Shown: positions 38,740 to 63,780, counted from the first letter of the stretch. The stretch: 64,000 nucleotides of DNA from Amoebophrya sp. A120 (GCA_905178155.1 CAJINV010000002.1:7346743-7410742), one strand, 5' to 3'. Program-made: numbers and translations. Notes: generated by a model from the sequence alone, not told the origin.

Positions 38740-38741
38740 GT

Positions 38742-45500: not shown

Positions 45501-46721
45501 TGAGACTCTCTGGGAGTCCTTCTACCAACGAAATGCGGATGCCTTCGCGGACGTACGCGAGACTGCGCTCCTCGTGGGACAGGATGCGGTGAAAGGAGCG
45601 GTGCTGAAGGGACGACAAGAAGCACAAGGCAAGGCGTCCAAAGGTGGTAAGCGCTATGGACCAATGGGGAAAGGAGGAAAGAAAACCCATAAGTCCTCCG
45701 GCAAGGGCAAGTCGGAAAATGGCAAGGCCCTCTCAAACGCCTCTGACGAGAACAGACGGAGAGGTAAAGACACCTCCTTTACCGTGGCAGTCCTCCCGTG
45801 CAACTCGCCGCTGCACTCCAACACGTCCCATGCTGTGTATGACACAGCAACAGGAGTCATGACTGTGACGGGTCAGGGCCGGTTTGTCAAGGAATACTGC
45901 TTGTTCTGCAAGATCGACCACGTCCTCTTTGTCATCTTGATAGGAAACATGGAGGTCAAGTGGTGCCCCGGGTACTTCGAGGATCTTTACCGTTCCAAGG
46001 TGTCAGATGCGGCTCCGCAAGATCGCCGATGCACTCGCTCCGCGCCCACCTCGGAGTGCAGTGCGATGGCCGCGAAGGTGTCTAGCTTCGCGCGAGCTGG
46101 CGGCTTTAGCGGCTGGTTGAAAGAGGACCGACAGAAGGATATTCGCGGGCGTCTCTCCCTGATCGGCCTCGATGGATACCTGGAGCAGCAGGCTGCCGTC
46201 GCTGCGACGTGTCCGCCGGAAGCCGCTACAACTGTCGCACAAATGCTCGATTTCTTCGACGACCAGGTCTGGTGTGATGAGGTCAACGGACCTTGGGTGG
46301 CTTCCTTGCACCAATTGCGCGTCTGCGGCTGCTTGGGACACTCACAAGACATCGGATACGCCTCCATGCGGTCGCAGTACGAGCGTATCATGCCGGAGTT
46401 ACGACGCAACAATCCGCTCACAGGTCCTTCCGTCACGCCCAGTCCTCCTGCCCCGATAGGTACCCAAGCGAGAGACACGAGTGGCCTTTTCCAGGCATTG
46501 TCGTCTGTAAATCAGGGCGCGGCTTGTACGACCGCTCTTGGACTTCTGGGCATTTTGCTAGAGTTTAGGCACCTTTCCTGGCTCAAGCGTTCAAGAAGTG
46601 TCCACCGTCTTTCTTTGCTTGTAGTCGCTTCCCGCAGCGCACTACGCTCGACGGTATCGGTTAGGTTCAAGCGCATAAAGTGTTTGGCACGCTCGTTTTG
46701 TTGCGAGCCCTACATTGATTC
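39550..46721 (+). CDS. ORF1, Gag-like protein (>=2,390 aa; first ATG 39580; true end hidden by the assembly gap)
   Basis: Located before pol; long coiled coil (~41700-43500), basic KGGK/KGK tract (~45630-45730) and a zinc-knuckle-like CLFCKIDH...C (45898-45966). Confidence 0.65.
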
Positions 46722-46821
46722 NNNNNNNNNNNNNNNNNNNNNNNNNNNNNNNNNNNNNNNNNNNNNNNNNNNNNNNNNNNNNNNNNNNNNNNNNNNNNNN
46801 NNNNNNNNNNNNNNNNNNNNN
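46722..46821. other. Assembly gap (100 N)
   Basis: Run of exactly 100 N; the true size is unknown. Confidence 0.99.
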
Positions 46822-47026
46822 CAGATCTGGGATCTATCCTGTATCCATCGAGGTACTGCGATCAGAATCTATGATCTCCGAAGGAATCAAATGGAAATGC
46901 AAATAGGATCCTGATGGCCGTGTGCCGAGACTCTTGGGGATTACCTGGCCTATTCGGCTATAGGTTCTCCCCGAGGCGTCTCCCGCGAAATACTCACTTC
47001 CGCTGCAAACACTCCAGGATGCAAAG

Positions 47027-50000
47027 ATGCAGGAGGCTTTACAACTCCAGCGCATGGCACAGCAGTTTAACAACAACTACCTTAACATGAGCTTCGATCC
47101 GTACAGCATCGCGGCACGAGTACTGCAGAATGCTTGCCACGCAGCGCCGCCCACTGCCTCAGAGGGCGCTCCTGTAGGAAACAGCATCACGCCTTCGCAA
47201 CAGCAGTCAGCAGAGCAGCACCGGCAGGCCGCGACACCGATCGCATCGAGCCTTGGCAACCCTCTGAAAACCGCCAGCACAGCTGTCCAACAGCCTGACC
47301 TTAGCCTACCTGCAGGTGTTCCTGCCGCAGGCGTTGTCGGGAACTCTCCCAGTCCGACTCTGGGGCAGCCGCTGCAGTCGGGCGGAATTCTGAAACGCAT
47401 GGGCAACTCTGAAGCACCTGTAAGAGATGAAGTGGTGTTCGTGGAGAACACCACCACGGCCGGTGGCGGGTTGTCGGGGTTGTTGCAACCGATTAGCAGT
47501 ATTGCCGGAGTTATCCGAACCGGAACGCAGGAGCCAAACGTCAGGACGGGTGGTGTCTACGAAGAGCGCTCCCTGCTCCCCGCGCACGTTACTACTTCTG
47601 TTAGCCCAAGCCCGGCAGAAGAACCGAAGGAACCCGCAACGAACACGCAACCTGCCTCGACCTTCAAATCGTCAGGGAGAGCCTGTGGAGCTCAAATTGA
47701 ACTACCGGCGAAGGCTGAGACTAGTAGACCTGACGAAGACGAAGAGGTTTCGAAGTTAGTCTCACTGTGCCGGAGCGCGGGAATTTTATCCTCCGTGTGC
47801 GACCCACTGCCAGGGGCTCTGTCCAAACCCGAAACCCAAAACGTTGCGAAGGAGCAGTCCAACCCTCAAGAACATCTGGCTGTCTCGACTAGTTCGGGCG
47901 AGGGAGAGTTTGTTTCGACAGTGGTGCGGCTCAAAGGAGCAGAAGAGCACCAGCTTCGCTTGCACAACTACCGGTCGTCGGCTACCGGAGTGGCAGACCA
48001 GCTCCCTGGCATGACGAAGCCGAAAGAACCTGAGCGTCGCGTTGCCATCGTCGTGCCACCGGGTACGGCCATCAGACGCGTTTTCTCTCAGCACGTCACA
48101 CCGGGCCTGATCAAGGATCAGAGAGTCCTCAAGGACGGGAACGCGGCCCTCGAAGAGACCGCTGCTACCATCCCAGGGGCTTGCTGGGACGGGGCGCTGG
48201 AGGATGACGTGTTCGAAATCACACGTGCGGATCTCGAAGTGGCCCTACACCGACCGCACAGCAATCCAGTTGACGCATTCCTAGCACAAGAAAGCCTTTC
48301 AAACCTGAAACAGGCGCTGGAAACGGGTGATCATCGCGTGCCGAATCTGAGTGCAGACCAACTAGTTACGGCCATGTTCGTTGGATGCGAGGATCCCTTC
48401 AGTCTACGTGACGCAGTGGAGCATGGCCTCGATGTGCTCAGCCTGGGGCCTCATGACGATCAACTACGGCAAGAAATACTTGACATTCTTGAGGAAGAAT
48501 GCGTGAAGTCTGAGGACAAACGGCGCGAAACCTTCACCAGTAGCATGTGTTTACTACGCTCCAAGATGAAAATGTTGCAGAACAGGGGATTATTGCGGGT
48601 CGACCAGCTTCAGCGACGACAACGTCGGTGGCAACATCGAGGTCTCCGACGCACGCCGCGAAAGGGACCACGCAAGGTCGTCCTGGCACGCCGCAGGGCG
48701 AAGGCGCGAGTCGAGGTAGGCAAAGATAACTTCGAGACCCCACCGATGGTGACTGCTGGCTCCTTTGTCTCCTCTGTCTCGCCGCAAGAAGATTTCAATA
48801 ATCTCTCCTTCCTCTCCGAGGTCTCGTGGGAGGTCGAAGCAGAACATCTGAGCGACCCTGAACTCGAGCAGCCCAGCCGCGGAACGAGTGAGGCCAGTCC
48901 CATAGGACCAAACGGGCCGGACCACGTCGACTTCGATCCACGCCCGGAAGAAGGGCATGGTGAGCGGGACACGCCCGCTGCGGCGGCCACAAGGCTCGCT
49001 GTCTTCACGGCGGCGGCAGCGCGAGTAGACGAAATTGCATGGGGTCGACAACCTCTCGTCGCTGACCCGGAGACGACCTTGGAAGGGGTGCTCGATGAGT
49101 ACGCGGAACCGCACGTCATCGGTCCGGATGGGCAGGGCTTACCGGAGGTGGCCGCCCCCGCTGTTCCAGTGGACATAGCACTTCCCGAACAACCCCCAGC
49201 TCCGACTCCTCCTCCTTTCGTCGGAGACCCTCGTATCGACTCGGATTACGATGAGTGGTCGAATGGTGACACCGACGACGACGACTCGGCGGTTCGCCCC
49301 GCGCGGGTAAGGTTTTGCGAAACCACGCGGGTCTGGCCAGATGCTCTGCTTTGTGAGATTGAGCACCGCGCAAGCCACCATGACGGCTTGATAGCTCCTC
49401 ACACCACAGTGGAAGACTTTCGGGAGCAGATAGCATCACACAAAACCCGGAGGAGACGTTCTCGACGCCGCATCCGAGTGCCACCCACCAGCAGCGTTGA
49501 GTCCGAAGTGCTCTCGGGTGTCGCGAACACAAACCAAGATTTGAAATTGCGACGGTCGTGGCTAGCGGGCGTGGGAGTCAAGCACAGTGACGTCGGCCCT
49601 TCCGCGGTGGGCCAGTCTCACCCGGTCAAGCGAGACCTTGTGCCTCACCCGGGTTGGAAGTTTTGGCGTGCAGTCCCAAACAGGGCACGTCGAAGTAGAC
49701 AGGACATCGAAACCATCATTGGTTGGCGTCGCCGAGACGAGGTCGTGGTCACGGAGGAGTGGTGCCTCCAGCTTCTGGGATATGCTGTGGGAGATTCCAG
49801 ATACCCGATCCAGGAGATGATGGTGCGGTACATTGCGCAGGTTTATTGGCGGGTTTCGTTGCGGGTCGACGTTGTTACGAACAAAACACCGCTGCCTCGG
49901 TTGTGGAAACACCTCGGACGTGCTTTCGCGCTAAGTTCAAGAGCGCCTCTCGACACAGTCGTCCGTACCGAGTCACCCGCCAGAATGATCGCCGAGGACC

Positions 50001-53000
50001 GGCTCTACAGCAATGGGCATCCGTTCATAACCACGAGGAGACGTGGGCACTGTAGTCGCCGTGCCAAAGGTCACCAAGCGGAACTGCCTTATCCGTTCCT
50101 GAAGAGGGCACGACGAGTACTAGACGGGACCAAAACAGTGGAAGATCTCTGGATCGAGAATGTGCGGGACAGGCCGTGGCAGGTCCTGTCCTGGATCTGC
50201 GCTTGCTTCTGGCTCGCTTACTACAACTGGACTTGGGCCTTGGGAACTCTCGTGTTACTTTGCCTCGGCCTGTCTATCGCTCGCGCTTTCGGCATCTGTT
50301 GCAACTGGATCTGCAAGGCCCTGCGCGAAATAGACCTCGAATTCCTCGACCCTCCACCGCTCCGGCACCTCACGCGGCAGCGCAGCAACAACAACCCCTA
50401 TCGGATAGTTCGGGATTGTCAAATCGAGAGTAACCATGAGGGTCATACGTGTTGCGACAGATACGCTGTCGTCACCAACTGCTGGTCCATTGTAGGCACC
50501 GGGTTCCTGCATTCACGGGAGATCGAGTCGAATTTCTACAATGTAGGCAATGATTGCGAGAAGAACATCGGAACCATGGCCGAAATCAAGCGGATGTTGC
50601 AACTAAAGCACGGAAGGTACTCACCCCGGTCTCGCTCACGAGTTTATGGGATCTTTGCGATCGGGCGCCACTACCAGGTGGACAACCTGCGGTACTTTGA
50701 TGCGAAAAGAGGCGTCTGGGTAGGGGCAAAGCCCTCCTACAGCGTCCGCACCGGCTTCGATCGCGTGGGGGGTCCTCTCAACATGGTGAACGTTGTAGAG
50801 CGTCTGCGGGGTGACGGATCAGACGACAACGTCCGCAACTGGAATGCATTGCTCTGGAGCTGCATCAAAGACATTCGGGGTTTGTTTTCTGGATTGAACG
50901 AGGTCGCCAGGTCCAATTACCAGCAGTGGACTGCAATACGAGATCTCGAGCCGGGGCGTTACGATCGACGGAGCTGGTTCGAAGGAAAGTTTTGCGACTT
51001 CTTCGGGGGTAATGAACGTTGTGCCATCGTTCTCGTGCTGGAATTGCACGAAGACACCCCGTTGAACATCGAGAAGCAGCTCCTCCGTGCCCTCAGAAAC
51101 GAGATTCAAAGTTGCATCATCCAACACGCCGACAACTCGCAGGAGGGACGTCGCCACTGGTACGATCCAAACGGGTTCTGGGCGCGCAGCGAAATACACC
51201 GCGTACATGCACGACTCCTGGAACGTGTCGTCGTGACGGCGGTTCGCCATGGGACGATCGTGGGAACGGAAACGGGTCACAGCGCTGATACGTATTTGTT
51301 ACGGAACGAGTACGCACTTCTTGCTGGACTCGACGTCCTTGGTGTCAGTGGGGCCTATTTTGGGGATATTTCCCTGGCCTCCAGTACACCTGTCCGTGAC
51401 CGCACGGTGGACCGCTGGCAAGTCACGGAGCAGCAAATCGAGAGGGCAAGAAGATACAACTTCCTGGGTGAGGTTACACATGACAGCCCTTTCTGCCTCG
51501 CCATCCCCTACGAAATGGGGTCCGGGCTGGTCAACGGCTACATGCGACACGGGCGCCTCGTGAGAAATCGCAATTGCCTGTTGCACGCAGCGCCACCAGG
51601 AGGCGGCTTCACAAAACTCACCGGTTACTTCTTCGACAGTTTCGGACGACATCGGAAGTGCGAGGTCCTGGCCTACGAACTAGGACACACTTTCGAACTC
51701 AGTATTGAAGGTGGTGTGAGCGCTGAGGAGCTTTTGCGGGTTTGCTGTGGCATCACGGAAGACGAGTTCCGTCGGACGACGCCAAGCGTTCGACGCTTGC
51801 TGTCCCAAGTCCGGCGTGCCACGCCAGGAATTGTGCAGACTTTCGGAAACAACATCGGCGCGCGAGTCGAGATAGACCGTGATATCCACTACAGCAGCGC
51901 TCCCGTGCAACGCGAGCTGGAGAAGAATCGTCATTACCTTGAGAGAAGGACGACTTTCAGCAATTTCGCCAACGGGTTTAACGGCATCCGCGGGGTCATT
52001 TCGTGGTTCCTGCGACAGGTCGCACACACAATCGTGCAGTTCGCCTTCAACATTGAGGGACCACAGGGTCTTGTCCGTAGCAGCATTACGGTCGAAGAGC
52101 AGTCCCGGTCCCGATACGGCGGAGTAGAGGCATTTTGGAGGCAGTCAGACATCGAGAAGCTCAACAAAGACGAGAGAGCCAACATCTGTCGCAAAATGGG
52201 GCGAGATGAGAAAGGTGAGTTCTCACAAGTCCGCAGCGACCCCCTTGGAAACAGACTGGTCGTTGGTTTCAAGTGCAAAGATGGTCGCTACATACTGACA
52301 GTTGTGCTTGTGGACACAGGGTGCAAAGTGTCGAAGTATGTCCTCGGAGAAAACCTTCTGTCCGTTTTCTTCGCTGCCCTGTACGGAATCCCTCGCGTAC
52401 ACGTACCGGGGCTCGAGGAAATTTGCCTTTTCGGTTCTCCGAATTGCGGGTCAATGTCCTCTACCCTGGCCCTTGCCTTCGTGGACCCTTTTATCCCGTG
52501 CTTTGATTACACGCTGAAAGGGGCCGAGAACAGCGGACAAGGGGAAGTCGGGCGTTTCTATTCCGTCAAGGACGGTTGCGGAATAGCGCGCGGCTACGCT
52601 CCCGGGCACAATCGCGTGGTCTCTTTGAGCGAAGACCCCGCTGCAGACATCGCTCGCGGGCTGCGGATTTCCGAAGTACGGGACACAGCGTCTAGGGCGG
52701 TCTTGAGCCGTGGGAGCCTGGCCATGGTCGCGGAGTGGCTTTTCCGCTACGACGGCTTAATACTGGGTATGGACACTATTGTTCGTCTCGGGCTCGAGTT
52801 GCCCGTTCCGTACAGCTTCTTGGACCAACTGGGGATGCTCTCGCTCGTCCTCGAGGAGGCAGCCACTGGAAAGGCCCACCGTCGAATGGCGCAGCGCGTT
52901 CCCACCCGGGGAATTGGGAACGAAGATTATATGGGGCTCTTCGAAAATCGCGTCACGCCGGCCGGCAAGAAACTGTCGCCGAAGGAGCTTGTTGCCATTG

Positions 53001-56000
53001 CCATGCGCGATTCGAAACCGCTCGACGCCAGCAAGGCGGAGGATCAACCAGTCATCCGCCTGATGCACAGTAGCAGCTTGATGCAGCAAGTTGCACAGGT
53101 ACCTGCCGGGGCAACTGTGATCGCCGCCACACCACCAGCCGAGAGCGGAGGAGCCAATGCGACTGTTTCTGCACCCACTCCTGTGCCCGCTGCCAAGAAG
53201 GTCTCTTTCCAGGACGGACCGCCTGCGACGATCGAGATCGAGCAAAATCAGGCGAGCTCTGGTTACCTCCGGTTCAGCTACGGCGACCTCCACGACACCA
53301 ACGACCTCGCCCCTAATGGTAGTTACACCTGCACCGTTGACTTCACAGAGTCAAAGCGGAGATTCGAAAACGGAACGCTGCAACGGGTGCATTTCGACTT
53401 CACGTCGGAGGAGCTCAAGCACCTTGCTGAAAATTACATATGCGAGGACGATGCTCCGGAGGGTGTTTACAAGCACCGGGCGGACCTGGACCTCGACAAG
53501 GTCCGCAGCAAAGGTGTCGCTTCTAAGAATGTCGATCTCGGATTGAGCAGCGCTGGTGCCCCGCTCTCTAACACGAAGAATGCCATCAAGCATCGTAAGA
53601 AGCGCGAGCAAGTACGTCGTCTGCGGCAGTTCGACCAATACCTCCGCAGTGGGCTTCCGAGTCTCTTCCGAGAAGCGGCTTCCAGCGGTCCATCTGAAGT
53701 ACAGCCCGGCACGCCTGAAACTTCACCTGACGAGAGCAAGGTGCCCGAGGATCCTACAGTTCCGGAGGAAGAGGGACCAGGAGAAGAGGAATTGAACGAG
53801 TCTGACTCGGAGGACGAAGTCGAGACATCGAAGACCAGTGCTGATTTCGAGTGGCCTGATAGCTTGCGCCTCAGTGCCAAACAACGTGCTGCCGCTAAAC
53901 GGTGGGGTAGCGACGCGAGTGGTACCCGTGAGTACGCACGAACGCTGCGGAGACGCCTGCGAGGCGAAACTTGCTGTGGCTGGCGCTTCGTGCTGTTGAT
54001 GGTCTTACTGGCCTACTCGGTGATGGAGGGCTTTGTCTGCGAGGTGCATGCAGCTGATCCAGAAAACGACTCCTTCGAGACAGGCTCCACCGAGAAGGAC
54101 TTGAGTAAGGACGCTCTAAGGCGCGGCGTGAAGTATCTCGCTGCGTTGGATACCGAATCAGTGAAAGGCATCGCCAGCCTGGACTGCGCCAAGGGCTTCT
54201 TGCAATATAAGTTGTCCTCGCGTTTATGGCGCTACACCTCATGGGTGTACCGGTGCGTAGTAAAGCGGCCCCTCAGACTCTTCCTGGGTCTGACGTGGGC
54301 ACCGCAGATTTTCTGCACTGGGTCCCAATTATCCTTCGGGACGTTGCGGGACCCCGACATAGAAGTCGCAGAACTGATGCGGGCCAGCGAGAAGGTGGGA
54401 GTCCATCTCTCCGCAGATATCAGCGAGAGTGACCTCGACAAACTTGTCCTTCATTTTGCAAAAGAAAAGGGCCCTGCTTGCGTCACCGACGAGAGAAACG
54501 CAGAGGATTTGTTTTCACGATTGGAGGGCCCGCGAGAAGCCGCCGAACGTGCGTTACGCAAGCAGGAGCAGTCAACGCTGGACGGAAGCGCAGCTGCTGG
54601 AGACGATGATAGCGATTTCTCCGAAGTGGATGTCATGCAGGACGCCGACAGTGACAGCACCAGCTCCTCGGAAGGCGAAGAGCAGTCGGATTTTGGCGGA
54701 AAACTGACGCGCGAAGATCACCTCTTTTCCTTTTATCAACAGCAGATGGAGAAGCAGGGAGTCACGTCGGTTTACAAACAACAGAGTCCCTCCTTCACCA
54801 CGGAGTGCACTGACACCGCAGAAACCGTATCGGGCAGTGATACTGAGGGATCCCGAACTTCTGACGACGAGTCGTCCGAGACCACTTCAGAGGTTGGCCC
54901 GGACAACGCGAGCTCCCCGTCACGTGGCCCCAAATCAAAGAAGCCGCGTACCACTATCCCGGTAAACGAGAAGCGCGTTCGCACCCTGCTACAGGCGGCC
55001 AAAGCCTTCGGTCCGTGGCGTTGGGGCGAGCACGGTGTTCGTCTACTTTGGAGGTATCTCAAAACTAAGGTGAACCAGGCCAGCCCTGGTGGGACACGCA
55101 GGGAGAAACGTCGACGCGGACAGAAACTTTTGAAGAGTCTTTTGGAAAAGATTCCGGGATTGGAATTCGTGATTCCGTACGTGGACGACGTGAATTTCAC
55201 GTTCCATGGGCTGTGGAACCTCCTCGTACGTCTCGGGCTGGTTTTAGGCAGAAGTGAGCAGACAGGATTGGCTTTCAGCGTCAAGAAGGTTCAGGCGGAC
55301 CGCGTGCTCCAGGTTCTTGGATGGCTTATCGATGCCGCTCAGGGATTCCGGACGCCTGACCCAGGCAAGGTTCGTGGTTTGCGCGCGTTTACCTGGCAGC
55401 GGGTGTCGAAAGATCTGAAGGTCTTGAAGCGCTTCGTGTGCGTGGCTGGGTATCTTCGGGAGGCCTACCAGCGCACCGATGAGCTCGACGCTGCGGAACA
55501 ACTGCTGAAGGACTACCTGCAGAATCCCAAGGCATTCAAGACAATGCGCAGCGACCCAAAGGCTCGAGCTGCCTTCAAGACCTACCAGCGGAAACTGTGC
55601 GACACCGTCGAGATAAGCCAGATCGACGTCGCTGCAGCGCGCAATTGGCGACTCTACACACCCGGAGAAAACCCTATCCTCAGGATCATGCTCGATTCAT
55701 CCGCTGCCCGATCAAACGCCACGGGCATGCAACGCCAACGTGGCACCGATCGCATGGTGTTCAATCGAACCCATAAATGGGCGAAAGAAGAACGCGACAA
55801 GAACGGCAACTTGTCGGTGATGATGGAGGTGAACGGGGCCGTATGGCTGGTACGCGAGGTCTTGCCACGCCTTCCAAAAGTCCCCTTTGCGCTTTATTTC
55901 GACAACACGTGTTTGTCAGAAAAGCAGTTGTGGTCGATATGCGCTTCGGCAACAGTCAGGAAGTCCCTGGTCTCCAAAAGTGCCGAGGTCATCTGCGCAC

Positions 56001-59000
56001 TGGCGGAATGGGAGGTGTACTTCGAAACCGCGAAGGGTGCGGGCAACAGTATCCCGGACCACGGCAGTCGTTGCGACCCTGCTGGGCCCGCCTCCCAGAA
56101 AGCAGGGGAGCAAAAGGATGCGTTCGAGATGCTGCGCGATCGCCTCAAGTGGCTCTTTGGTAAAGGAAAAGTCACTCCAGACAGCGACAGCGAAGAAGAA
56201 GAAAAGGGTGGGGGGCCCGGGAACGGAGCCGCGAAGTCCTACACCAACATCGCCCCGCAGAACACAGAAGAAGATGGTGGCCTTGCTCGGGAAGATCGGG
56301 TCGACGCCTGGATGGGTCTGCATCGGTTTTTGTCCATGGATGCTTTCCTATCCTACTGGACCTGCTCCCAAGCCACGCTGCACCCCTTTGTGGAGGCGAG
56401 TTTCTTCGTACAAACAGACGATTTTTACGAAGTGCCTTTTGAAGACGGCCGACTGGTCCAGTATTACGTCGACTTCCACTTCTCTTCGGTGCAAGAAATC
56501 ACGATCCTCCCTCCCAACCGATGCGCGAGCAGACTTCAGCTGATGGAGGGTCTGACGTATCGCGTTACCGCGACCACAGACAAGCCGGTTTGCGTGACGC
56601 CACGGCTCTTTGTCCTACCATTCGAAGGGAACCGCAAACACGTCGATCTCAAAGGGCGATACCGAATAGTGCAGATGTCGGGTGTGCTCGACACGCATGT
56701 GCGGGAAACCACGCCGCAATATGGGGCGTCGTGTGACACGGTGGACACCGAAGTCGAGATGCCCTTCCACCGCGAAGGATCTGCTGCTGCCGCTCCGAAG
56801 GACACTGTGGATTCTGAGTTTCCGCTGCCCGATCCGTCGACACTCCCTCCCTCGAACAACCCGATCTTGAACAACGCGACACCAGAAGAAGTCGTGCAGG
56901 CGATCATCACTAGGCTTCGAAAGGCCCGCAGTTCCATCACAGTCGAGGATTTCGAGAAAGCTTGCGTCGCCAAGTTCGAAGAGGTCTGTGGCAAATGGCC
57001 AACCGGTGCCCGTTATTGCATGATGAGGCAAATGTTGTTGTTGCGTCTCGCGCTTTGGACGGAAGGAGCCCGGTTCCCCACCGCTCGCTTGCCGAGTGCG
57101 TACCATCCAGTTAAAAAGAACTGCAAGTATGCGGCGTTCAGAAAGATTCAGCTTGAACCTCTCATGGACCTTGTGTTGAGGTTCCATTTAGCTGAACAGA
57201 CCCTTGAAGGTCTGCTTGCCGACTATGACCCGCACATGGGGCTGCCAGTGCAGTTGTCCGCTTTGTTTCTCGCTATACGTAAGAACGACTGTCTGGCCCG
57301 GATCATAGTCGATGCGTCGACTTCGAATGGGGTCTTCGAAGCCGCGGTTTACCCGCTCGCAGCAGTCGAAGCTGTGTGGGCTAAACTCCTCAGCTGCTTC
57401 CCTGCCATCACCCGAAAGGAGTACCACGAGAAAACAAACGCCATGCTGTCGCTGCGGTCCATCGGGAACTGGGGACAGCTGGCTCTCCGGACGGTGAAAG
57501 GGGCACTCACGTTCGCGGGCCTCGACTCTGCCTCGCGCGAAGAAAAGCCCGTGGGAAACTTCCTCGATGCACTCCGGACGGAACCTGTCTTCGTGCACTA
57601 CAGCGGGTATCTCGACAAGACAGAGGCCATGCGGTTGGCTGGTTTGAAGCCAAAGACCGGAGACTCGATTGTCTTCAAGTCTTGCCAGAGCGTGCTGCCA
57701 CCTGGGGGTGAACGCTGGTTAAACCGCCGTGCCGAATACACGGGTCTACGGCCGTGGTCCCGGGCCAAGTCTATTCTGATGCGCACTATGCCTGGCGCTC
57801 TGTCCACGCACCCACCACGACCGACCACGTTTCGGGTGCTACATGTACTTCCGGTTGAAGAGACGTTCGAGGACCTCTGTTGGCGCGACGGTGGCTGGGG
57901 TGCGGTCTTCAAGCAATTCACGGACCGAAGCTCGTACGACACCGTCAGACTCGGTTTCCCGTCCGTCGATTGGCTTTGCAAGGAATGCATTCTCGTATTC
58001 CGAGGTGACAACTACACGGACTACATGTGCGGCGCAGCTCCGGGTCCTAAAGAAGAGCTGCACCTCTGCGAGCCCGTGCCCGGTGATGATAGCCCTGGAA
58101 CCTCAGGCCAACCCCGGTGGTTTCGTTGCCGCGACGAGCTTGAAGGATGTTCCCTACCAGGATTCCAGCCCAAGAAAGCTGGAGATGAGGTAAAAGCCTC
58201 ATCAAAGAAGAAAAGGAATAAGAAAGAGACCTTGCTTCCGACTGAGGACGGGACGGATGAAGACGAGGTCCACGAGGAGCAGAACAAAGCTCCGGCAAAG
58301 AAAGCCAAAACAAAACCTGCTGTCGCGCAGAAGCAGAGCAAGTCGAAGGGTGTCGCTAATAAGAAGTCTAAGGCGAAAGCCAAAGCAAAAGGTAACCTAG
58401 TGGTCGAAGATGATGCCGATCTTGACCTCCAGGCCGAAGCCGATGAGTTTGAGCTCGACTTCGAAAACGAACAGGACTCTAATGAGGTGCAGCTGGAGGA
58501 CGTCGAAATGGAAGACGCCGAGCTGCTCGAAGATGATCTCTCGCAAGAAGAGGCAGAAGAGCCTGGCGTCGACCTCCAAGGGCAAGGATTGCGCCTCGAC
58601 GAGGAGAACCCCAAGAGGAAAGGCACCCTCGTGCGTGAAGCGGTTGAAACTCAATTCAAGAAGCTGATTCCGGAATTCGAGGCGCAAGTGGGTGACGACG
58701 AGGACAAAGTCAAACGCCTTACCTGGACCACCACGAGCAACAATTGGAGCGTCCTCCTCGACATCAAGAACGCCAAGTATCCACGGGACCAGTCAAGAGC
58801 TCCGTCACGCGTCCTCGGATACGCGACAACCACCAAACGGAAGGACGTGCTTGTTCCCCTGACCAAGGACGTTGGCCGAATTGCGCAGTTCCATGGTAGT
58901 ACCGGGAAGTGCGAAAAGTACGGCACCTTGGTTGATTTCGAAGTCGTTGGATTGTCTGTGCTGCTACGTCCACGTCGCTTCTACCTATTCTTCGCGCGAC

Positions 59001-61624
59001 AAGCGGTGGACGTGCTGTTACTTGATGACGAGTTCGCAATCCAAATCAAAACTGCGGTCGCTGCTGAAATGCCTGGCACAATCACAGCTTTGGAAGCCCG
59101 CAGCAGAGACTTGTCCGCCAATGAGATTCATGCCGAGGTCAAGCGCGCCTTGATCAAAGCCAAAGGTAACTGTACCGAACGTTTGGCACGACGGGTGATT
59201 GCAGACAGCTGGCGCTTCGTGTTGCACGAAGGGTACCTGATGGTACACAGATCACTAGAACGTTGCTGGAAGCTCTGGATCCCGAATGTCTACCTCGACA
59301 AAATTTCCATCGAGGACACGCAGTACGGCAGAACCAGCCCTTTGCGCGCGCTTGTTGATCGGACACATGTGAACCGCGACCATCTCACCCAAGGACCTCT
59401 ATACGAGGAGGTGATCTCGATGGGGTTCTGGCACGACGACCTTCGCAAGGTTTGTGATTGGCTCGTCCGCAACTGCCTGCTCTGCTGCAGCCTGATCACA
59501 GCGCCGTCTCTCGCTGGAGCACCCCGTGCTGAGAGATACGCTAATGTGGTGGGGGCCGTCCTTTTTATAGATTACATATGCGGTCTCCCCAAGAGCAAAC
59601 CGGGCGGACACACCTGCATTTTCACAGCAAATGACGCAGTGTCCGGAAATATGTGGGCGTTCGTCGGGCCGCGAGCCACAGCGGACTTCGCGGCGAAGTG
59701 CGTTAAGAGCATCTTCCAGGTCGGAGGGGAGAAGTATCGCGTCATCCGGTGCGACAATGGCTCACACTTCAAACGCAAATTCCAAGCTTGCTTGCGTAAG
59801 GAGCTGCAGAGTTTAGGAGTGGCCTTTGTTATGCCCGAGATCAAGCACGGTCCGCATTACTCGGCGCAGTCGCAGACCCCGGTCGAGAGACCGCACCAGT
59901 TCATCAATCGGGGGATTCGCGTCGCACTCTTCCCGCATGCGACTTTCAGCCGTGAAGTGGTAGAGGACGTCCTGGCGGACGTGGTTGTCTTCGACGAAAG
60001 TACCGAGGGCGACGACGACCTGATGGATCGTGAGGAGACGGAAGTCACCGATGTTGCTGATCTAACCGCCTGGCACAAACCGGTACAGGGAGTCGTTTCG
60101 AACTTGATGGGCCGCGCCCTACCGCATTACGACAACCTCAGCATCGATCACCTGCACAAAGGTCGCAGTGTTTGCGGTGGGACCCCTCGGTTTTCACGCG
60201 GTTACCGTCACGATGTCGCCGAGAACGCTGGCGTCCTGAAGGTTGTTCAGTCCTGCGGCCACCTCCAGCAGATGCAGACACGTGAGATGCGCGCCGTCAA
60301 GGAGAGGCAACGCTTCTTCGAACTACCAGGACAAGATATGTCCTGGTTCAACATCGGCACCACCGTCGCGCGCCTGTTGCCCAGTAGAAGCAAGTTTCAG
60401 CCCATGGATATCCGCTGTTTGTTCGTCATACGACGCGTCTACACCAACAGTTGTGATATCCAGACGCTGACTGGGTACGCCTACTTCGGAGGCAATCCTA
60501 TTCAGGCGTCACAGGTCCGGCCACGCAACCTCACGCTGGGTGCCTGTCGCGTGTACTTGTCCCTTTGGGGTTGCGTGGGTGAAGCACAAGAGACGCGTGT
60601 AAAAGAGCTTCTGAACATCGGGGTGGTGTTCCTCGAAGAAATCGGAGACCGTGAGGTGCAAAGTTTCCAGAGGCTAACGGGCGATATCCGATTTCGCGTC
60701 GGTTGTTACAATGTGGATGGGGTAGCAGCAGCTCTGGAGAGACCGTGGAAGTTCAGTTTCCTTTCAACAGTCGGAGTCTTCTCGGATGGTCTTTCGATAC
60801 AAGAAACGAAACTTCAGTTCCGCGACGTGGACCCTTGGACGGACATCCTGCGCAACATCTTCGGTTACAACAAATTCAAAGCTTCTGACTTCGCTTGGAG
60901 GTGTTGCACACCGCGACCGGGAAACTTCGGCACGGTGTGGGTCGGTAAAGGAGCCACCGACACTATCCCCACGCTTACCTGTGGCCAGGAAGAACATAAC
61001 CCCTCGTTCGAGGGCAGAATCGTGGTTGCCGAGCCGTTGGGCAAAGGCCAGCTGCTTGTCGTCACGTTGTATAACGTCAACTCTGGTCCTTGGCTGGCTG
61101 AAAAGGGCGAGTTTCAACGCAGCTCTGTTCGAGAAAGATGGGACCGTGCCGTGCAAGATTTCTTGAGAAAGGCACCACACAGCCACGTCATCTTTTGCGG
61201 GGACCTCAATGCCCTCTGGCCAGGTATTGAGGGCACCCATATGCGCAAAACGGATTGGCAGGGCGTGCCCATCCCGTCGTTGAGCAGTCGCGAGTCTCGC
61301 TCGCTGCAGACGCTGGTACGTGCCTGCGACTTCCGGCGGTGCAGTACGACGAGTAGTACCGACGGCTGCGCTCTGAACTTTCGACTGAAGAACGAGGGTA
61401 CCGCAACGGCGTTCAGTCTCTCTCACTTCCTAGTACGCGGAGGATTTGCGTCGCCCCCGACATTGGATTATGTTGGTTGCGAGCCAGTCTACGAGGTCGA
61501 GCCAGAAAAGGGAAGTACTACCCGATGTGGTCGCGTTTACACTTTGGCGAGTTACTACGACCACTGCGCTCTGGTAGGAGACTTCGTTCTGACCCAAGAC
61601 GTGTCACTCAGAGCTCGAGAGTAG
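47027..61624 (+). CDS. pol: ORF2, Pol polyprotein (4,865 aa): unknown N-terminal region, aspartic protease, RT(C-half), RNase H, RT(N-half), integrase, EEP nuclease
   Basis: Protease: VLVDTG (52313) and LILGMD (~52757). RT C-half: SLDCAKGFLQ (D at 54182), GLTWAPQIF, YVDD (55178), VLGWLI. RNase H: MLDSS (55694), MME, YFDN, NSIPDHGSR. RT N-half: SALFLAIRKND..RIIVD..SN....YPL (57257-57358). Integrase: H-x4-H...CLLC, IDYI, CDNG, VER (59366-59890). EEP: YNVDG, QETK, GDLN, DH (60686-61600). Confidence 0.9.
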   Translation: MQEALQLQRMAQQFNNNYLNMSFDPYSIAARVLQNACHAAPPTASEGAPVGNSITPSQQQSAEQHRQAATPIASSLGNPLKTASTAVQQPDLSLPAGVPAAGVVGNSPSPTLGQPLQSGGILKRMGNSEAPVRDEVVFVENTTTAGGGLSGLLQPISSIAGVIRTGTQEPNVRTGGVYEERSLLPAHVTTSVSPSPAEEPKEPATNTQPASTFKSSGRACGAQIELPAKAETSRPDEDEEVSKLVSLCRSAGILSSVCDPLPGALSKPETQNVAKEQSNPQEHLAVSTSSGEGEFVSTVVRLKGAEEHQLRLHNYRSSATGVADQLPGMTKPKEPERRVAIVVPPGTAIRRVFSQHVTPGLIKDQRVLKDGNAALEETAATIPGACWDGALEDDVFEITRADLEVALHRPHSNPVDAFLAQESLSNLKQALETGDHRVPNLSADQLVTAMFVGCEDPFSLRDAVEHGLDVLSLGPHDDQLRQEILDILEEECVKSEDKRRETFTSSMCLLRSKMKMLQNRGLLRVDQLQRRQRRWQHRGLRRTPRKGPRKVVLARRRAKARVEVGKDNFETPPMVTAGSFVSSVSPQEDFNNLSFLSEVSWEVEAEHLSDPELEQPSRGTSEASPIGPNGPDHVDFDPRPEEGHGERDTPAAAATRLAVFTAAAARVDEIAWGRQPLVADPETTLEGVLDEYAEPHVIGPDGQGLPEVAAPAVPVDIALPEQPPAPTPPPFVGDPRIDSDYDEWSNGDTDDDDSAVRPARVRFCETTRVWPDALLCEIEHRASHHDGLIAPHTTVEDFREQIASHKTRRRRSRRRIRVPPTSSVESEVLSGVANTNQDLKLRRSWLAGVGVKHSDVGPSAVGQSHPVKRDLVPHPGWKFWRAVPNRARRSRQDIETIIGWRRRDEVVVTEEWCLQLLGYAVGDSRYPIQEMMVRYIAQVYWRVSLRVDVVTNKTPLPRLWKHLGRAFALSSRAPLDTVVRTESPARMIAEDRLYSNGHPFITTRRRGHCSRRAKGHQAELPYPFLKRARRVLDGTKTVEDLWIENVRDRPWQVLSWICACFWLAYYNWTWALGTLVLLCLGLSIARAFGICCNWICKALREIDLEFLDPPPLRHLTRQRSNNNPYRIVRDCQIESNHEGHTCCDRYAVVTNCWSIVGTGFLHSREIESNFYNVGNDCEKNIGTMAEIKRMLQLKHGRYSPRSRSRVYGIFAIGRHYQVDNLRYFDAKRGVWVGAKPSYSVRTGFDRVGGPLNMVNVVERLRGDGSDDNVRNWNALLWSCIKDIRGLFSGLNEVARSNYQQWTAIRDLEPGRYDRRSWFEGKFCDFFGGNERCAIVLVLELHEDTPLNIEKQLLRALRNEIQSCIIQHADNSQEGRRHWYDPNGFWARSEIHRVHARLLERVVVTAVRHGTIVGTETGHSADTYLLRNEYALLAGLDVLGVSGAYFGDISLASSTPVRDRTVDRWQVTEQQIERARRYNFLGEVTHDSPFCLAIPYEMGSGLVNGYMRHGRLVRNRNCLLHAAPPGGGFTKLTGYFFDSFGRHRKCEVLAYELGHTFELSIEGGVSAEELLRVCCGITEDEFRRTTPSVRRLLSQVRRATPGIVQTFGNNIGARVEIDRDIHYSSAPVQRELEKNRHYLERRTTFSNFANGFNGIRGVISWFLRQVAHTIVQFAFNIEGPQGLVRSSITVEEQSRSRYGGVEAFWRQSDIEKLNKDERANICRKMGRDEKGEFSQVRSDPLGNRLVVGFKCKDGRYILTVVLVDTGCKVSKYVLGENLLSVFFAALYGIPRVHVPGLEEICLFGSPNCGSMSSTLALAFVDPFIPCFDYTLKGAENSGQGEVGRFYSVKDGCGIARGYAPGHNRVVSLSEDPAADIARGLRISEVRDTASRAVLSRGSLAMVAEWLFRYDGLILGMDTIVRLGLELPVPYSFLDQLGMLSLVLEEAATGKAHRRMAQRVPTRGIGNEDYMGLFENRVTPAGKKLSPKELVAIAMRDSKPLDASKAEDQPVIRLMHSSSLMQQVAQVPAGATVIAATPPAESGGANATVSAPTPVPAAKKVSFQDGPPATIEIEQNQASSGYLRFSYGDLHDTNDLAPNGSYTCTVDFTESKRRFENGTLQRVHFDFTSEELKHLAENYICEDDAPEGVYKHRADLDLDKVRSKGVASKNVDLGLSSAGAPLSNTKNAIKHRKKREQVRRLRQFDQYLRSGLPSLFREAASSGPSEVQPGTPETSPDESKVPEDPTVPEEEGPGEEELNESDSEDEVETSKTSADFEWPDSLRLSAKQRAAAKRWGSDASGTREYARTLRRRLRGETCCGWRFVLLMVLLAYSVMEGFVCEVHAADPENDSFETGSTEKDLSKDALRRGVKYLAALDTESVKGIASLDCAKGFLQYKLSSRLWRYTSWVYRCVVKRPLRLFLGLTWAPQIFCTGSQLSFGTLRDPDIEVAELMRASEKVGVHLSADISESDLDKLVLHFAKEKGPACVTDERNAEDLFSRLEGPREAAERALRKQEQSTLDGSAAAGDDDSDFSEVDVMQDADSDSTSSSEGEEQSDFGGKLTREDHLFSFYQQQMEKQGVTSVYKQQSPSFTTECTDTAETVSGSDTEGSRTSDDESSETTSEVGPDNASSPSRGPKSKKPRTTIPVNEKRVRTLLQAAKAFGPWRWGEHGVRLLWRYLKTKVNQASPGGTRREKRRRGQKLLKSLLEKIPGLEFVIPYVDDVNFTFHGLWNLLVRLGLVLGRSEQTGLAFSVKKVQADRVLQVLGWLIDAAQGFRTPDPGKVRGLRAFTWQRVSKDLKVLKRFVCVAGYLREAYQRTDELDAAEQLLKDYLQNPKAFKTMRSDPKARAAFKTYQRKLCDTVEISQIDVAAARNWRLYTPGENPILRIMLDSSAARSNATGMQRQRGTDRMVFNRTHKWAKEERDKNGNLSVMMEVNGAVWLVREVLPRLPKVPFALYFDNTCLSEKQLWSICASATVRKSLVSKSAEVICALAEWEVYFETAKGAGNSIPDHGSRCDPAGPASQKAGEQKDAFEMLRDRLKWLFGKGKVTPDSDSEEEEKGGGPGNGAAKSYTNIAPQNTEEDGGLAREDRVDAWMGLHRFLSMDAFLSYWTCSQATLHPFVEASFFVQTDDFYEVPFEDGRLVQYYVDFHFSSVQEITILPPNRCASRLQLMEGLTYRVTATTDKPVCVTPRLFVLPFEGNRKHVDLKGRYRIVQMSGVLDTHVRETTPQYGASCDTVDTEVEMPFHREGSAAAAPKDTVDSEFPLPDPSTLPPSNNPILNNATPEEVVQAIITRLRKARSSITVEDFEKACVAKFEEVCGKWPTGARYCMMRQMLLLRLALWTEGARFPTARLPSAYHPVKKNCKYAAFRKIQLEPLMDLVLRFHLAEQTLEGLLADYDPHMGLPVQLSALFLAIRKNDCLARIIVDASTSNGVFEAAVYPLAAVEAVWAKLLSCFPAITRKEYHEKTNAMLSLRSIGNWGQLALRTVKGALTFAGLDSASREEKPVGNFLDALRTEPVFVHYSGYLDKTEAMRLAGLKPKTGDSIVFKSCQSVLPPGGERWLNRRAEYTGLRPWSRAKSILMRTMPGALSTHPPRPTTFRVLHVLPVEETFEDLCWRDGGWGAVFKQFTDRSSYDTVRLGFPSVDWLCKECILVFRGDNYTDYMCGAAPGPKEELHLCEPVPGDDSPGTSGQPRWFRCRDELEGCSLPGFQPKKAGDEVKASSKKKRNKKETLLPTEDGTDEDEVHEEQNKAPAKKAKTKPAVAQKQSKSKGVANKKSKAKAKAKGNLVVEDDADLDLQAEADEFELDFENEQDSNEVQLEDVEMEDAELLEDDLSQEEAEEPGVDLQGQGLRLDEENPKRKGTLVREAVETQFKKLIPEFEAQVGDDEDKVKRLTWTTTSNNWSVLLDIKNAKYPRDQSRAPSRVLGYATTTKRKDVLVPLTKDVGRIAQFHGSTGKCEKYGTLVDFEVVGLSVLLRPRRFYLFFARQAVDVLLLDDEFAIQIKTAVAAEMPGTITALEARSRDLSANEIHAEVKRALIKAKGNCTERLARRVIADSWRFVLHEGYLMVHRSLERCWKLWIPNVYLDKISIEDTQYGRTSPLRALVDRTHVNRDHLTQGPLYEEVISMGFWHDDLRKVCDWLVRNCLLCCSLITAPSLAGAPRAERYANVVGAVLFIDYICGLPKSKPGGHTCIFTANDAVSGNMWAFVGPRATADFAAKCVKSIFQVGGEKYRVIRCDNGSHFKRKFQACLRKELQSLGVAFVMPEIKHGPHYSAQSQTPVERPHQFINRGIRVALFPHATFSREVVEDVLADVVVFDESTEGDDDLMDREETEVTDVADLTAWHKPVQGVVSNLMGRALPHYDNLSIDHLHKGRSVCGGTPRFSRGYRHDVAENAGVLKVVQSCGHLQQMQTREMRAVKERQRFFELPGQDMSWFNIGTTVARLLPSRSKFQPMDIRCLFVIRRVYTNSCDIQTLTGYAYFGGNPIQASQVRPRNLTLGACRVYLSLWGCVGEAQETRVKELLNIGVVFLEEIGDREVQSFQRLTGDIRFRVGCYNVDGVAAALERPWKFSFLSTVGVFSDGLSIQETKLQFRDVDPWTDILRNIFGYNKFKASDFAWRCCTPRPGNFGTVWVGKGATDTIPTLTCGQEEHNPSFEGRIVVAEPLGKGQLLVVTLYNVNSGPWLAEKGEFQRSSVRERWDRAVQDFLRKAPHSHVIFCGDLNALWPGIEGTHMRKTDWQGVPIPSLSSRESRSLQTLVRACDFRRCSTTSSTDGCALNFRLKNEGTATAFSLSHFLVRGGFASPPTLDYVGCEPVYEVEPEKGSTTRCGRVYTLASYYDHCALVGDFVLTQDVSLRARE

Positions 61625-62253
61625 AGCCTGCCTCTACTAAAAAAAGAAAGTGTTTCTAAGGACTAAAAATTCGACAAAGAAGTATACGAATTGTAGAGTT
61701 TAACAGAGATTCAAAAGGAAAACCAGCTCAACTAGTACCTGTGAAGGCTTAAGTAGCAAATGTAGTTTACTAGATTGGGAAACAAGAGAAAGCAATTCGA
61801 CAAATGTTCGCCGTGTTAGTTACGTGTATCTTCCGGTGCGTGCGTAGCTCGTAGTTAATGTAACAGTTGGAAGGCTACTGGAAAATAAGGCGAAGTAGAG
61901 ATCACCTGCGGAAGGTCAAAAGATGACAAGTTTGCAAGCATATCTAAAAGCATTTTCTTTGAATAAGCATCAAGTTAACTTCATACCCACAACGTCATCC
62001 AAGTGTTGCTTTCATGTCTGAGTGTCAATTATGAATAACAAAACCAACAGGCTAACCAGGTAAGCGTGCTTGCTTTGTTTCACGTAAGTCTATTTGTTTT
62101 GATTTGTGCCTGAATTACATAAAACGAACGCATCTGTAAGAGTGTTTTAAGTATACCTATACCTTTAAGTTTACGACAGTGTCACACTCAGAATTTTGTA
62201 ATAGAAGGACGTAACTAGAACGTGCTTGCCACGTTCCATAAAGAAACTGCACA

Positions 62254-63708
62254 ATGGCGGCCCTAGGACCAGAATTCTCGATGCAAGCGAACAATGCGCT
62301 TTGTGAGAACCCGTATGCCCCGAATAACGACCACCTGTTTGACTTGCGAGCCCACGAGACGAGCGGGTTCTTCTTGAATAACCTGTCCGACTTGGGTGGA
62401 ATCACGAAGAGTCTGGAGCCCCAGAAGTTTTTCATGAAGGAGAAAACGCTGAGCTTGACCCAGTTGTCCCTCCTCGCAGGGGGAACAGGTGATGTCCAGA
62501 TCGAGGAGGTGTGGATCGGTTGTTGTTTTCAAGATTTTTCCTTTTATCATCAACCTGCTGCGGTTTCTGAATTTCGTCCGTACCTAGTCGTTCTTTCCGA
62601 GACAGTGTCCAATTTGTTGGCTCCAAGGATTTCGGAGTTACGCATGGGGTCCTATCACCTCCAGGATGTGTCGGGCATGCTCGCCACCGCCCGGGAATAC
62701 GGATTCGACAAGTTCTGGATCTACTTCGTGGTCTTCGAGCCCGAGGTCCTCCTTCCCGGCACCTTAAGCCTCATGAATCTTCGTCGGCCCAAATTCGTCT
62801 ATGGAGTTATTCGGGATCCTTTCGCGCGCCATCGCCTGACGCCGATGATCGAGATGATCAACATGGTTGTGCAGACCACCTCCCGTTACACTGAGGTGGT
62901 GCACTTGCAGCGCGTCGAGGAACTGGAGCGACAGTACCGCGACGAGCTCGCCAACTTGATGAACCAGAACATCTTGTTACGTGTCGAAAATGCTCGTCAT
63001 CGCGATACGCAGGAAGAAAGTAATCAGATGCAGATCGAGAACGAAGCGGTGCGCCTCGACATCTTAGAAGAGCGGGAACGCTGCACTGAATTGCGATTGG
63101 AAAACGAGCGTCTCCGCGGCGCGATCCGTCGGTTGACGGACCAGTTGCGCGCCCGTCGCGAGCGTGGATCCCGTCCCAACCGCAACCGCAACTTCGATTT
63201 GACGCCGCCCAGTTCCCCTGCCCTCGCGACAAGAGGTGGCTCCAGCCCGGACAGCACTGGTTCTGACACACCTAGTTCTCCGATTTCTCCGTTGTCGGGT
63301 TCGTCCGACTCTGACGAAGCCAATTCACGTCATGATCTTGAAATGACAGATGTCCAGGACGAGAACGACGCTATTCCTGGCGGCTCGCGCGCGCCAGTCA
63401 TACAAGATACTGGTTGTCGCACGATGCCCCGCTTGACAGCGGACATGAGTTTCTACAATCACATGAATATGCTTTTCCAAGAACGAGCGGCTAACCAAAA
63501 CACCGAAAACCGCTCCCCTCGTGTCTGGATCCACCAAAATGATGGTAATTTATACGAAGTCTCCCCCGAAGTAAATGTGGATGATCGCACCAGCTCCAAC
63601 AACGACGCTTTGTTTGGTTCGCCGGACAGTGGCACAGGCAACTCTAGTTCGTGGCATAGTACCATCCACGTGGGTCTGACCCAGGAGGATTTAGATCAGT
63701 TGGATTAA
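62254..63708 (+). CDS. ORF3, 484-aa protein: globular N-terminus, central coiled coil, S/D-rich disordered tail; probably an accessory ORF of the retroelement
   Basis: Intron-free ORF 630 nt after the pol stop, same strand, with no LTR copy in between. Confidence 0.65.
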   Translation: MAALGPEFSMQANNALCENPYAPNNDHLFDLRAHETSGFFLNNLSDLGGITKSLEPQKFFMKEKTLSLTQLSLLAGGTGDVQIEEVWIGCCFQDFSFYHQPAAVSEFRPYLVVLSETVSNLLAPRISELRMGSYHLQDVSGMLATAREYGFDKFWIYFVVFEPEVLLPGTLSLMNLRRPKFVYGVIRDPFARHRLTPMIEMINMVVQTTSRYTEVVHLQRVEELERQYRDELANLMNQNILLRVENARHRDTQEESNQMQIENEAVRLDILEERERCTELRLENERLRGAIRRLTDQLRARRERGSRPNRNRNFDLTPPSSPALATRGGSSPDSTGSDTPSSPISPLSGSSDSDEANSRHDLEMTDVQDENDAIPGGSRAPVIQDTGCRTMPRLTADMSFYNHMNMLFQERAANQNTENRSPRVWIHQNDGNLYEVSPEVNVDDRTSSNNDALFGSPDSGTGNSSSWHSTIHVGLTQEDLDQLD

Positions 63709-63780
63709 GTGTGTGGCTTGCCTACACAGAAAGCTAAAGAAAGCGTTAATCACAGATCTCTCAAAATCTCAAGAAATAAA

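Follow-up and report, generated by a model that had tools for sequence, protein, structure and literature searches.

An ExoIII/APE1-family nuclease domain downstream of integrase in a likely 27-kb Ty3/gypsy-type retrotransposon from Amoebophrya sp. A120

We analysed a 64,000-nt stretch of DNA from Amoebophrya sp. A120 (GCA_905178155.1 CAJINV010000002.1:7346743-7410742; here termed the window) and observed that a retroelement polyprotein terminates in a 312-residue EEP nuclease domain of the ExoIII/ExoA/APE1 family (60686..61624, + strand), assigned by HMM, PDB and fold comparisons. The domain lies in frame behind an integrase with HHCC and DDE motifs and closes a frame of 4,886 codons. Its carrier is likely a Ty3/gypsy-like LTR retrotransposon of ~27 kb, bounded by two identical LTRs of 525 nt and encoding a polyprotein of ~7,200 residues, the size, class and LTRs being deduced as described below. 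We place at somewhat under one half (about 0.45) the probability that this ExoIII/APE1-family fold, behind the integrase of such an element, is a metal-dependent 3'-end nuclease.

All seven motifs quoted in a preliminary description of this DNA were located in one frame, inside the stop-free frame 46964-61624: YNVDG at 60707, IQETK at 60797, EGRI at 61010, LYNVN at 61067, CGDLN at 61196, SLSHF at 61415 and YDHC at 61556. The domain is intronless and complete from its first strand to the DH motif, and the polyprotein stop is its end. The Pfam search proposed in that description returned Exo_endo_phos (PF03372) at E=0.0016, with 18.7 bits against a curated cut-off of 24.5, and NCBIfam xth (TIGR00633) matched at E=3e-5, with 23.7 bits against 99.05; every HMM score for the domain is under its curated cut-off. 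The top matches in a PDB sequence search were APE1/ARP (E=1e-5), profile-profile comparison to ExoIII proteins gave a probability of 97% (E=5.8e-11), and Atlas features, which are independent of alignment, recovered PF03372 in 28 of 30 matches with a top score of 0.96. Also, a structure model built with an ExoIII alignment (pLDDT 69.6) matched EEP folds. Sequence and model alike point to the four-layer alpha/beta DNase I-like fold of the EEP superfamily.

HMMs, the PDB search and language-model features all class the domain as Xth/ExoA/APE1-like and not LINE-like, as had been proposed. PF14529 gave no match at E<=1, and LINE endonucleases were absent from the 35 PDB matches although present in the library searched. 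The same model, with its ExoIII alignment, matched class II AP endonucleases (B. subtilis ExoA, 5cfe; human APE1; Arabidopsis ARP; large-virus ExoIII) with a VIA Z of 24.1 (rmsd 3.1, 244 residues; Foldseek E=2.8e-12), whereas the endonucleases of LINE-1, R1Bm and TRAS1 scored Z 18.5, 17.1 and 16.4. With the ExoA/Xth/APE1 class the domain shares its fold, motif order, all catalytic residues but one, and the family-specific EGR and R-x3-R-x2-W motifs; it differs in its low identity (~20%, below HMM cut-offs), in the replacement of F266, R177, Y128, R281 and D283, in an insert of ~21 residues ahead of DH and in its fusion to an integrase. With the APE-type endonucleases of non-LTR retrotransposons it has in common an EEP superfamily domain in a retroelement polyprotein. 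Those enzymes, however, serve integration from a position N-terminal to RT, and a LINE-type endonuclease was rejected for the present domain, which is C-terminal, after a DDE integrase. The proposal that a host-type enzyme had been captured stood as regards the ExoIII/APE1 type but not as regards the host as donor, the scores for marine bacterial ExoA (37.6 bits), large-virus ExoIII (32.2) and human APE1 (28) not being separable. The branch that leads to the domain is ~4 changes per site long.

The catalytic set, which we take to be N68, E96, Y171, N174, D210, N212, D283, D308 and H309 of APE1, is kept at 8 of 9 positions; only D283 is lost, the Asp of the RLD motif being Ser here. The earlier reading that this Asp is replaced was thus borne out, and substrate-binding residues are altered as well. 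(Numbering follows a PDB alignment and the available part of PMC5785985.) In a comparison with 40 ExoIII/ExoA proteins, the domain keeps 21 of 38 invariant columns versus 11 of 97 variable ones, the catalytic positions (8/9) exceed the other invariant columns (13/29; Fisher p=0.023), and well-conserved columns are kept at 22/34 in the catalytic core versus 5/27 in residues 180-252, the second DNA-binding half, all of these counts being partly circular because aligners anchor on matches. At 4.3, the codon score of the domain exceeds that of every host window (n=20; maximum 3.5) and lies between the extremes recorded for the element (-3.8 and 19.2 in 22 held-out windows). Because 8/9 catalytic residues persist at such low identity and codon use is element-like, the domain has probably resided in the element for a long time and been under selection there. 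That a host gene fragment recently landed in frame by chance, as a passenger without a role, appears very improbable. Such an event would fit a codon score near the bottom of the span seen for the element and a single-copy element for which no sister was found; yet the domain is full-length, in frame and intronless, its score exceeds those of all host windows, and no second sequence of 85% likeness was present in two DNA runs of one sample.

Several substrate-contacting residues are replaced: F266 by Ala or Thr (non-aromatic in both alignment registers), W280 by Phe, R177 by Pro and Y128 by Asn; the pocket loop, modelled at pLDDT under 50, has two possible registers. R281, P173, H215 and the AGFT motif are also changed. 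As far as an uncertain loop register permits, the APE1-type AP-site pocket (F266/W280) and the R177 and Y128 contacts would be lacking. We therefore regard as unlikely a true AP endonuclease acting in base-excision repair of element cDNA (uracil, oxidised or modified bases), so as to protect the cDNA or block autointegration: other residues stand in place of F266, R177, Y128, H215 and the AGFT motif, and Pfam recognised no glycosylase domain in the element. Favouring such an enzyme are the facts that APE1/ExoA are the best matches in sequence and fold, and that the N-x-R-x-K-N-x-G loop is partly kept, with position 280 still aromatic, in one register. Also, host APE1 aids HIV-1 in avoiding autointegration (PMC2644782, in part), and transposons are marked with 5-hydroxymethyluracil in dinoflagellates, though maybe not in the present host (PMC11572971, in part).

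The replacement of D283, R281, R177 and F266 instead predicts a metal-dependent 3'-5' exonuclease or 3'-phosphodiesterase rather than a strict AP endonuclease. According to the available part of PMC5785985, the F266A substitution makes APE1 20- to 50-fold faster as an exonuclease, and ExoIII and APE2, in which the pocket is reduced, prefer exonuclease substrates; D283A is predicted to retain ~10% activity (PMC3942487, in part). We suggest that the element acquired the domain in the distant past, from either a cell or a large DNA virus, and has since retained it under selection, and that absence of the F266 aromatic would open the active site to 3'-end substrates. The nuclease would accompany integrase on the element's own cDNA and remove mismatched or blocked 3' ends while an RT without proofreading makes unusually long cDNA; possibly, it would act instead at gaps left by strand transfer. 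Precedents for such a role are the DEDDy 3'-5' exonucleases of rotifer LTR elements (PMC5408684) and the aid given to HIV-1 by host APE1 (PMC2644782).

Counting against a 3'-end nuclease, the changes at D283, R281, Y128, P173 and H215, and across most of the second DNA-binding half, are also compatible with an enzyme that is weak or dead. Such a protein could bind DNA or chromatin and thereby target integrase to sites that are nicked, damaged or modified, a reading that we consider rather unlikely. The domain does occupy the slot right after integrase where chromoviruses have a chromodomain (Pfam gave no Chromo match), D283 and R281 are lost, and the top fold matches include Crc, an EEP protein of translation repression without a reported repair role. 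Crc is not known to be catalytically active. However, a dead binder should show the reverse of the pattern observed, in which the DNA-binding loops have diverged (5/27) and the catalytic core is kept (22/34). A relaxed-specificity nickase or ribonuclease that cuts target DNA or element RNA would likewise account for a conserved core with a changed AP-recognition surface, a combination also found in LINE endonucleases. We consider this improbable, since the integrase retains its DDE and HHCC motifs, so that a second target-cutting enzyme is not needed, and neither PF14529 nor LINE-1 EN matched.

The remainder of Pol lies on the + strand throughout. The DDE core (59558..59890) matched Pfam rve at E=4.2e-5 and scored 36.7 by hhalign versus 19.4 for the best shuffle; as had been stated, the EEP domain lies downstream in the same frame. 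An HHCC zinc finger, H-x4-H-x30-C-x2-C (59366..59485), was read from the translation, the profile giving no match. A possible GPY/F or SH3-like C-terminal module (60389..60530) is visible by eye, as described previously, but was not matched by a 4-sequence gypsy profile, in a small-profile test that also missed the plain HHCC motif. The reverse transcriptase palm/thumb (54176..55462; Pfam RVT_1 E=0.16) is diverged and split, with an acidic insert of ~280 aa preceding YVDD; its YxDD-thumb profile scored 14.1 bits versus 4.8 for the best of 1,880 shuffles, and its motif A-B profile 5.7 bits, with one shuffle higher. An RNase H-like D/E/D/D region (55688..56122) was seen by eye (profile 3.5 bits, shuffles to 3.8; no hhalign match), as was an aspartic-protease-like DTG motif (52307..52324; no Pfam match). 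The order would be the PR-RT-RH-IN of Ty3/gypsy, with RT before IN supported and PR and RH as motifs seen by eye.

The inferred 5' LTR (38100..38624, +; 525 nt) forms a contig with a depth of 77.9, double that of its single-copy flanks (43.4 and 40.9), which is indirect evidence for an identical twin beyond the window and hence for the two direct LTRs of Ty3/gypsy elements (Metaviridae). A PBS-like stretch beginning TGG (38627..38644, +) starts 2 nt past the LTR, and the 3' LTR is expected at ~64828-65352, beyond the window; the contig bearing pol runs 857 nt past the window end. The first part of the polyprotein (39580..46546, +), in Gag position, is coiled-coil rich and has no Pfam match; the second, from an open-frame scan, is the 4,886-codon frame (46964..61624, +). 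Between them lies a younger, unrelated LTR element (46547..46996) with TG...CA ends, a duplicated 4-nt target, CTTC, on either side (46543-46546 and 46997-47000), a depth of ~16x single copy and other flanks at each of its ends. By length arithmetic, when this insertion is discounted the second part continues the frame of the first, for 7,209 codons in total; the present copy, interrupted upstream of the EEP domain, has probably lost the capacity to produce the polyprotein in full. The preliminary description had missed this interruption, the ~27-kb size and the ~7,200-aa polyprotein. A further coiled-coil frame of 488 codons, ORF3 (62242..63708, +), lies on the same contig with element-like codon use and belongs to no Pfam family.

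An assembly chimera, a concern raised previously, is scarcely credible. The window does have a gap of 100 N (46722-46821), and the two supporting runs come from one sample, maybe the source of the assembly. However, the gap sits inside the younger LTR insertion, 14 kb upstream of the junction; in both runs a single unbranched contig of flat depth covers 46991-64000, and the integrase-EEP junction is crossed by independent, unbranched contigs of 17,867 and 17,890 nt that differ at 2 letters.

In the literature searched we found no ExoIII-type domain after the integrase of an LTR element. Enzyme capture by such elements is known, as the available parts of the following reports describe for DEDDy exonucleases (PMC5408684), dUTPase (PMC6431247) and DNMT (PMC5890265). 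The rotifer elements Juno and Vesta likewise have a cellular-type nuclease of putative function downstream of integrase; theirs is a DnaQ-like DEDDy 3'-5' exonuclease of unrelated fold with intact catalytic residues, in a separate ORF3 and in many families, whereas ours is an EEP fold within Pol, known from one copy (PMC5408684, in part). Planarian Burro, a giant gypsy element, also exceeds 25 kb and has a single huge polyprotein with captured domains, but its ORF1 has 4,873-5,140 aa with dUTPase, BIR, BCL2 and env, and no EEP is listed in that part of the source (PMC6431247). Retrotransposons of dinoflagellates and Klebsormidium similarly carry a host DNA-modifying enzyme in Pol, kept under selection; these are methyltransferases in multi-copy families with Ka/Ks evidence, unlike our single-copy nuclease (PMC5890265, in part). 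For Kuafuorterviruses/Troyka, the accessible rows of PMC11673190 show the name Exo_endo_phos sporadically in LTR elements, in a few rows after rve. Of the 15 mentions listed, most concern the LINE-type Exo_endo_phos_2 and/or occur in oversize copies next to an additional RVT_1, so that we read most of these rows as nested LINEs; an in-frame fusion is not displayed there.

We tentatively propose that this is the first LTR retrotransposon with its own ExoIII-type repair nuclease in the integration complex, converted from an abasic-site cutter into an enzyme for 3'-end proofreading or cleaning, which would enable a ~27-kb element with a polyprotein longer than the Burro record to be copied and inserted, and that its lineage, one of giant protist retroelements whose RT is rearranged, is so far undescribed. 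Host repair enzymes are believed to fix the cDNA and seal the integration gaps of LTR elements and retroviruses; the RT of these elements lacks proofreading and their usual size limit is about 10 kb, and in large RNA viruses proofreading exonucleases are held to relax the size limit. An element that is nearly three times as large as this limit and has its own repair-family nuclease would allow one to ask directly whether end-processing by the element itself relaxes the limit. Retroelements would also have recruited the EEP fold independently of the LINE endonuclease, and the domain would be a naturally occurring variant of APE1 in which the active site is opened.

The open frame at 46964-61624 extends for 4,886 codons without a stop, and its last 312 residues (60686-61624) constitute the EEP domain, an ExoIII/APE1-family nuclease domain at the C-terminal end of the polyprotein of a putative Ty3/gypsy-like LTR retrotransposon (the element). 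All 7 motifs quoted in the preliminary description were found in this frame, at 60707-61567, and they follow, as it had proposed, the integrase core in the same frame. The integrase combines this DDE core with an H-x4-H-x30-C-x2-C finger. The core was detected by the Pfam rve profile (E=4.2e-5) and by hhalign (36.7 vs 19.4 for the best shuffle). A GPY/F module, also proposed there, is visible by eye, but the GPY/F profile gave no signal, and neither did the HHCC or RNase H profiles on the element, whose protease and RNase H are motifs picked out by eye only. The RT was matched by a YxDD-thumb profile at 14.1 bits, vs 4.8 for the best of 1,880 shuffles; judged from these motifs, the order of RT then integrase fits Ty3/gypsy.

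Several other features of the frame were observed. An RT-fingers-like motif (R-x3-D-x4-N...YPL spacing) is located at 57269-57394, after RNase H, and none was evident before the RT palm. A profile of gypsy fingers ranked it as top match (19.3, against 15.7 for the best shuffle), with a probability of just 2.8%, and HMMER, Pfam, PDB and Atlas searches with it returned nothing; possibly, the RT is permuted or duplicated. An acidic low-complexity insert of ~280 residues (54317-55160) separates RT motif B from YVDD, and the linker between RNase H and integrase gave no Atlas match above 0.77. The region from the Gag position to the protease motif (47000-52300, ~1,750 residues) has no Pfam match and one hydrophobic stretch, at 50234; further captured domains may be hidden there.

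The EEP domain matched Exo_endo_phos in Pfam (E=0.0016) and xth (E=3e-5), and among solved structures only APE1/ARP matched it at a significant level (32/35 rows, best E=1e-5), while by language-model features 28 of 30 Atlas matches were to PF03372. These results bear out its assignment as a real EEP domain, and because every HMM score fell under the curated cut-off, we regard it as very diverged. Folded from the single sequence it gave a pLDDT of 31, and with an input alignment of 40 ExoIII/ExoA proteins from IMG/VR contigs, 69.6. Foldseek with the resulting model returned APE1 first, and fold scores were highest for ExoA (Z 24.1), the Xth family (22-23) and APE2 (20) and lower for the LINE-type enzymes LINE-1 (18.5), R1Bm (17.1) and TRAS1 (16.4), a ranking that is biased by the ExoIII/ExoA alignment used to build the model. 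The same ranking agrees with two other observations, namely that PF14529 in Pfam did not match the domain and that no LINE endonuclease appeared among its solved-structure matches, although present in the library searched. The domain is thus of the ExoIII/APE1 type, as first described, and not of the LINE type.

We considered whether the fusion of integrase to EEP domain could be an assembly chimera, and rejected this as extremely improbable. Single contigs of 17,867 and 17,890 nt span 46991-64000 and 46968-64000, respectively, at flat depths of 42.6 and 19.9, in 2 DNA-type runs which, being from one sample, are not mutually independent and are possibly the source of the assembly itself. Each contig differs from the window at two letters; the difference at 60886, within the EEP domain, is synonymous as read from the codon. 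The integrase-EEP architecture is real and well supported. Apart from two 18-19-nt matches, no other contig of 85% likeness in either run lies on 46991-64000, so that the element is single-copy and there is no near-identical host gene as a recent source of the domain.

The 5' LTR was placed at 38100-38624 because a 525-nt contig there has a depth of 77.9, between neighbors at 43.4 and 40.9, which we read as an LTR with an identical twin. A PBS-like stretch led by TGG begins 2 nt past it; no tRNA gene to match was found within the window. Since the pol contig runs 857 nt past the window end, we infer a 3' LTR outside the window at about 64828-65352, which would give the element a length of about 26.8 kb; it would also be young. 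Its polyprotein gene contains a second, unrelated LTR element at 46547-46996 (TG...CA at its ends, CTTC duplicated on either side, a depth of 16-fold, and joins to other flanking sequences), so the present copy is interrupted. With this insertion discounted, the two large frames join in one frame totaling 7,209 codons, and the original polyprotein would thus have been about 7,200 residues, whereas those of planarian Burro are 4,873-5,140 (PMC6431247). The inserted family has about 16 LTR copies. Its LTR end connects to a contig of 16,336 nt whose depth is about 7-fold, and this suggests about 7 near-identical, recently active ~19-kb elements. Past the EEP domain, an orphan ORF3 (62242-63708, 488 codons) has a coiled-coil, the env position and element-like codon use.

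Host DNA was also surveyed. Tandem ABC-transporter (ABCA-like) genes were judged by eye at 1-12838. A spliced transcript of a proteasome RPT1-like gene marks the host as an intron-bearing eukaryote, which may be an alveolate-type protist. This gene contains at 36040-36325 an introner-like intron of non-canonical type (listed as GC..TA); it has terminal inverted repeats and related copies elsewhere in the genome. In one run (X7), contigs included the spliced neighboring host gene and lacked the 5' part of the element, an absence that is no sign of silence. Another run from the same sample (X3), DNA-like and rich in errors, covered 16/17 host bins but scarcely any of the 13 bins belonging to the two LTR elements (38186-46720), even the 16-copy one. 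The two elements may be missing from this DNA, or else their DNA may be hard to read, eg, through base modification.

Among 202 proteins, the best pairwise scores of the EEP domain were 37.6 bits (a marine gammaproteobacterium) and 32.2 (a large-virus type), and human APE1 scored 28 bits. A tree of 66 rows, none a eukaryotic APE1 or LINE endonuclease, left the domain unplaced on a branch of 3.97; neither these scores nor this tree point to one donor. No sister element was found in word-seeded searches of the EEP domain against proteins of 547-2000 and 171-546 aa or of integrase plus EEP against proteins of 2310-7350 aa, by exact look-up, or in IMG/VR, JGI metagenomes (second scan, 2/64 parts) or prokaryote genomes (3/64 parts). 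At most 247 in-frame residues lay upstream of the domain in every one of the 266 loci parsed of 280 EEP loci. A single known copy counts weakly against our reading, as these searches are insensitive to distant kin and cover few protist genomes.

The EEP domain keeps 21/38 invariant, 8/29 near-invariant and 11/97 variable columns, counts inflated by alignment anchoring. Of the 9 catalytic positions, all of them invariant columns, it retains 8, vs 13 of the other 29 invariant columns (p=0.023). Its codon score (4.3) exceeds all 20 host windows and lies at the low end of the range spanned by 22 element windows that were held out (-3.8 to 19.2). Together, column conservation, catalytic retention and codon choice argue for long residence in the element under selection, which could predate capture; that the domain is a passenger appears very unlikely.

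Conservation is uneven, with 22/34 well-conserved columns kept in residues 1-179 and 5/27 in residues 180-252, and it is unlikely that the domain is now a weak or dead targeting module. For the AP-pocket loop, a count of 1/12 is the upper view of loss, given two alignment registers (HMMER, MAFFT) and low model confidence. In APE1 numbering, neither register gives F266 an aromatic partner; Phe is the best reading for W280, and Ser stands at both R281 and D283, the latter being the replaced Asp of RLD noted at the outset. The F266A change makes APE1 20- to 50-fold faster as an exonuclease, and exonuclease substrates are favored by enzymes that have a single pocket aromatic or none (PMC5785985); D283A is predicted to retain about 10% activity (PMC3942487). 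By these precedents, and given the loss of F266 and the changes at R281 and D283, the domain may be a 3'-end exonuclease/phosphodiesterase (probability roughly 0.45), which would work on 3' ends of the element's long cDNA or, alternatively, at integration gaps. A true AP endonuclease guarding cDNA, by analogy with host APE1 for HIV-1 (PMC2644782), is unlikely, and a relaxed nickase/RNase quite unlikely.

Captured DEDDy exonucleases and GDSL esterases (PMC5408684), DNMTs (PMC5890265) and chromodomains and helicases (PMC6338049) are described in LTR elements. Exo_endo_phos is reported as sporadic in Kuafuorterviruses, mostly next to an extra RVT_1 in oversize copies (PMC11673190, Table S3), and we read these as nested LINEs. 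An ExoIII-type domain fused behind integrase was not found in the literature searched, subscription papers and Repbase being outside its scope. The EEP fusion adds a further type of accessory enzyme to those captured by LTR elements, and its carrier is unusually large.
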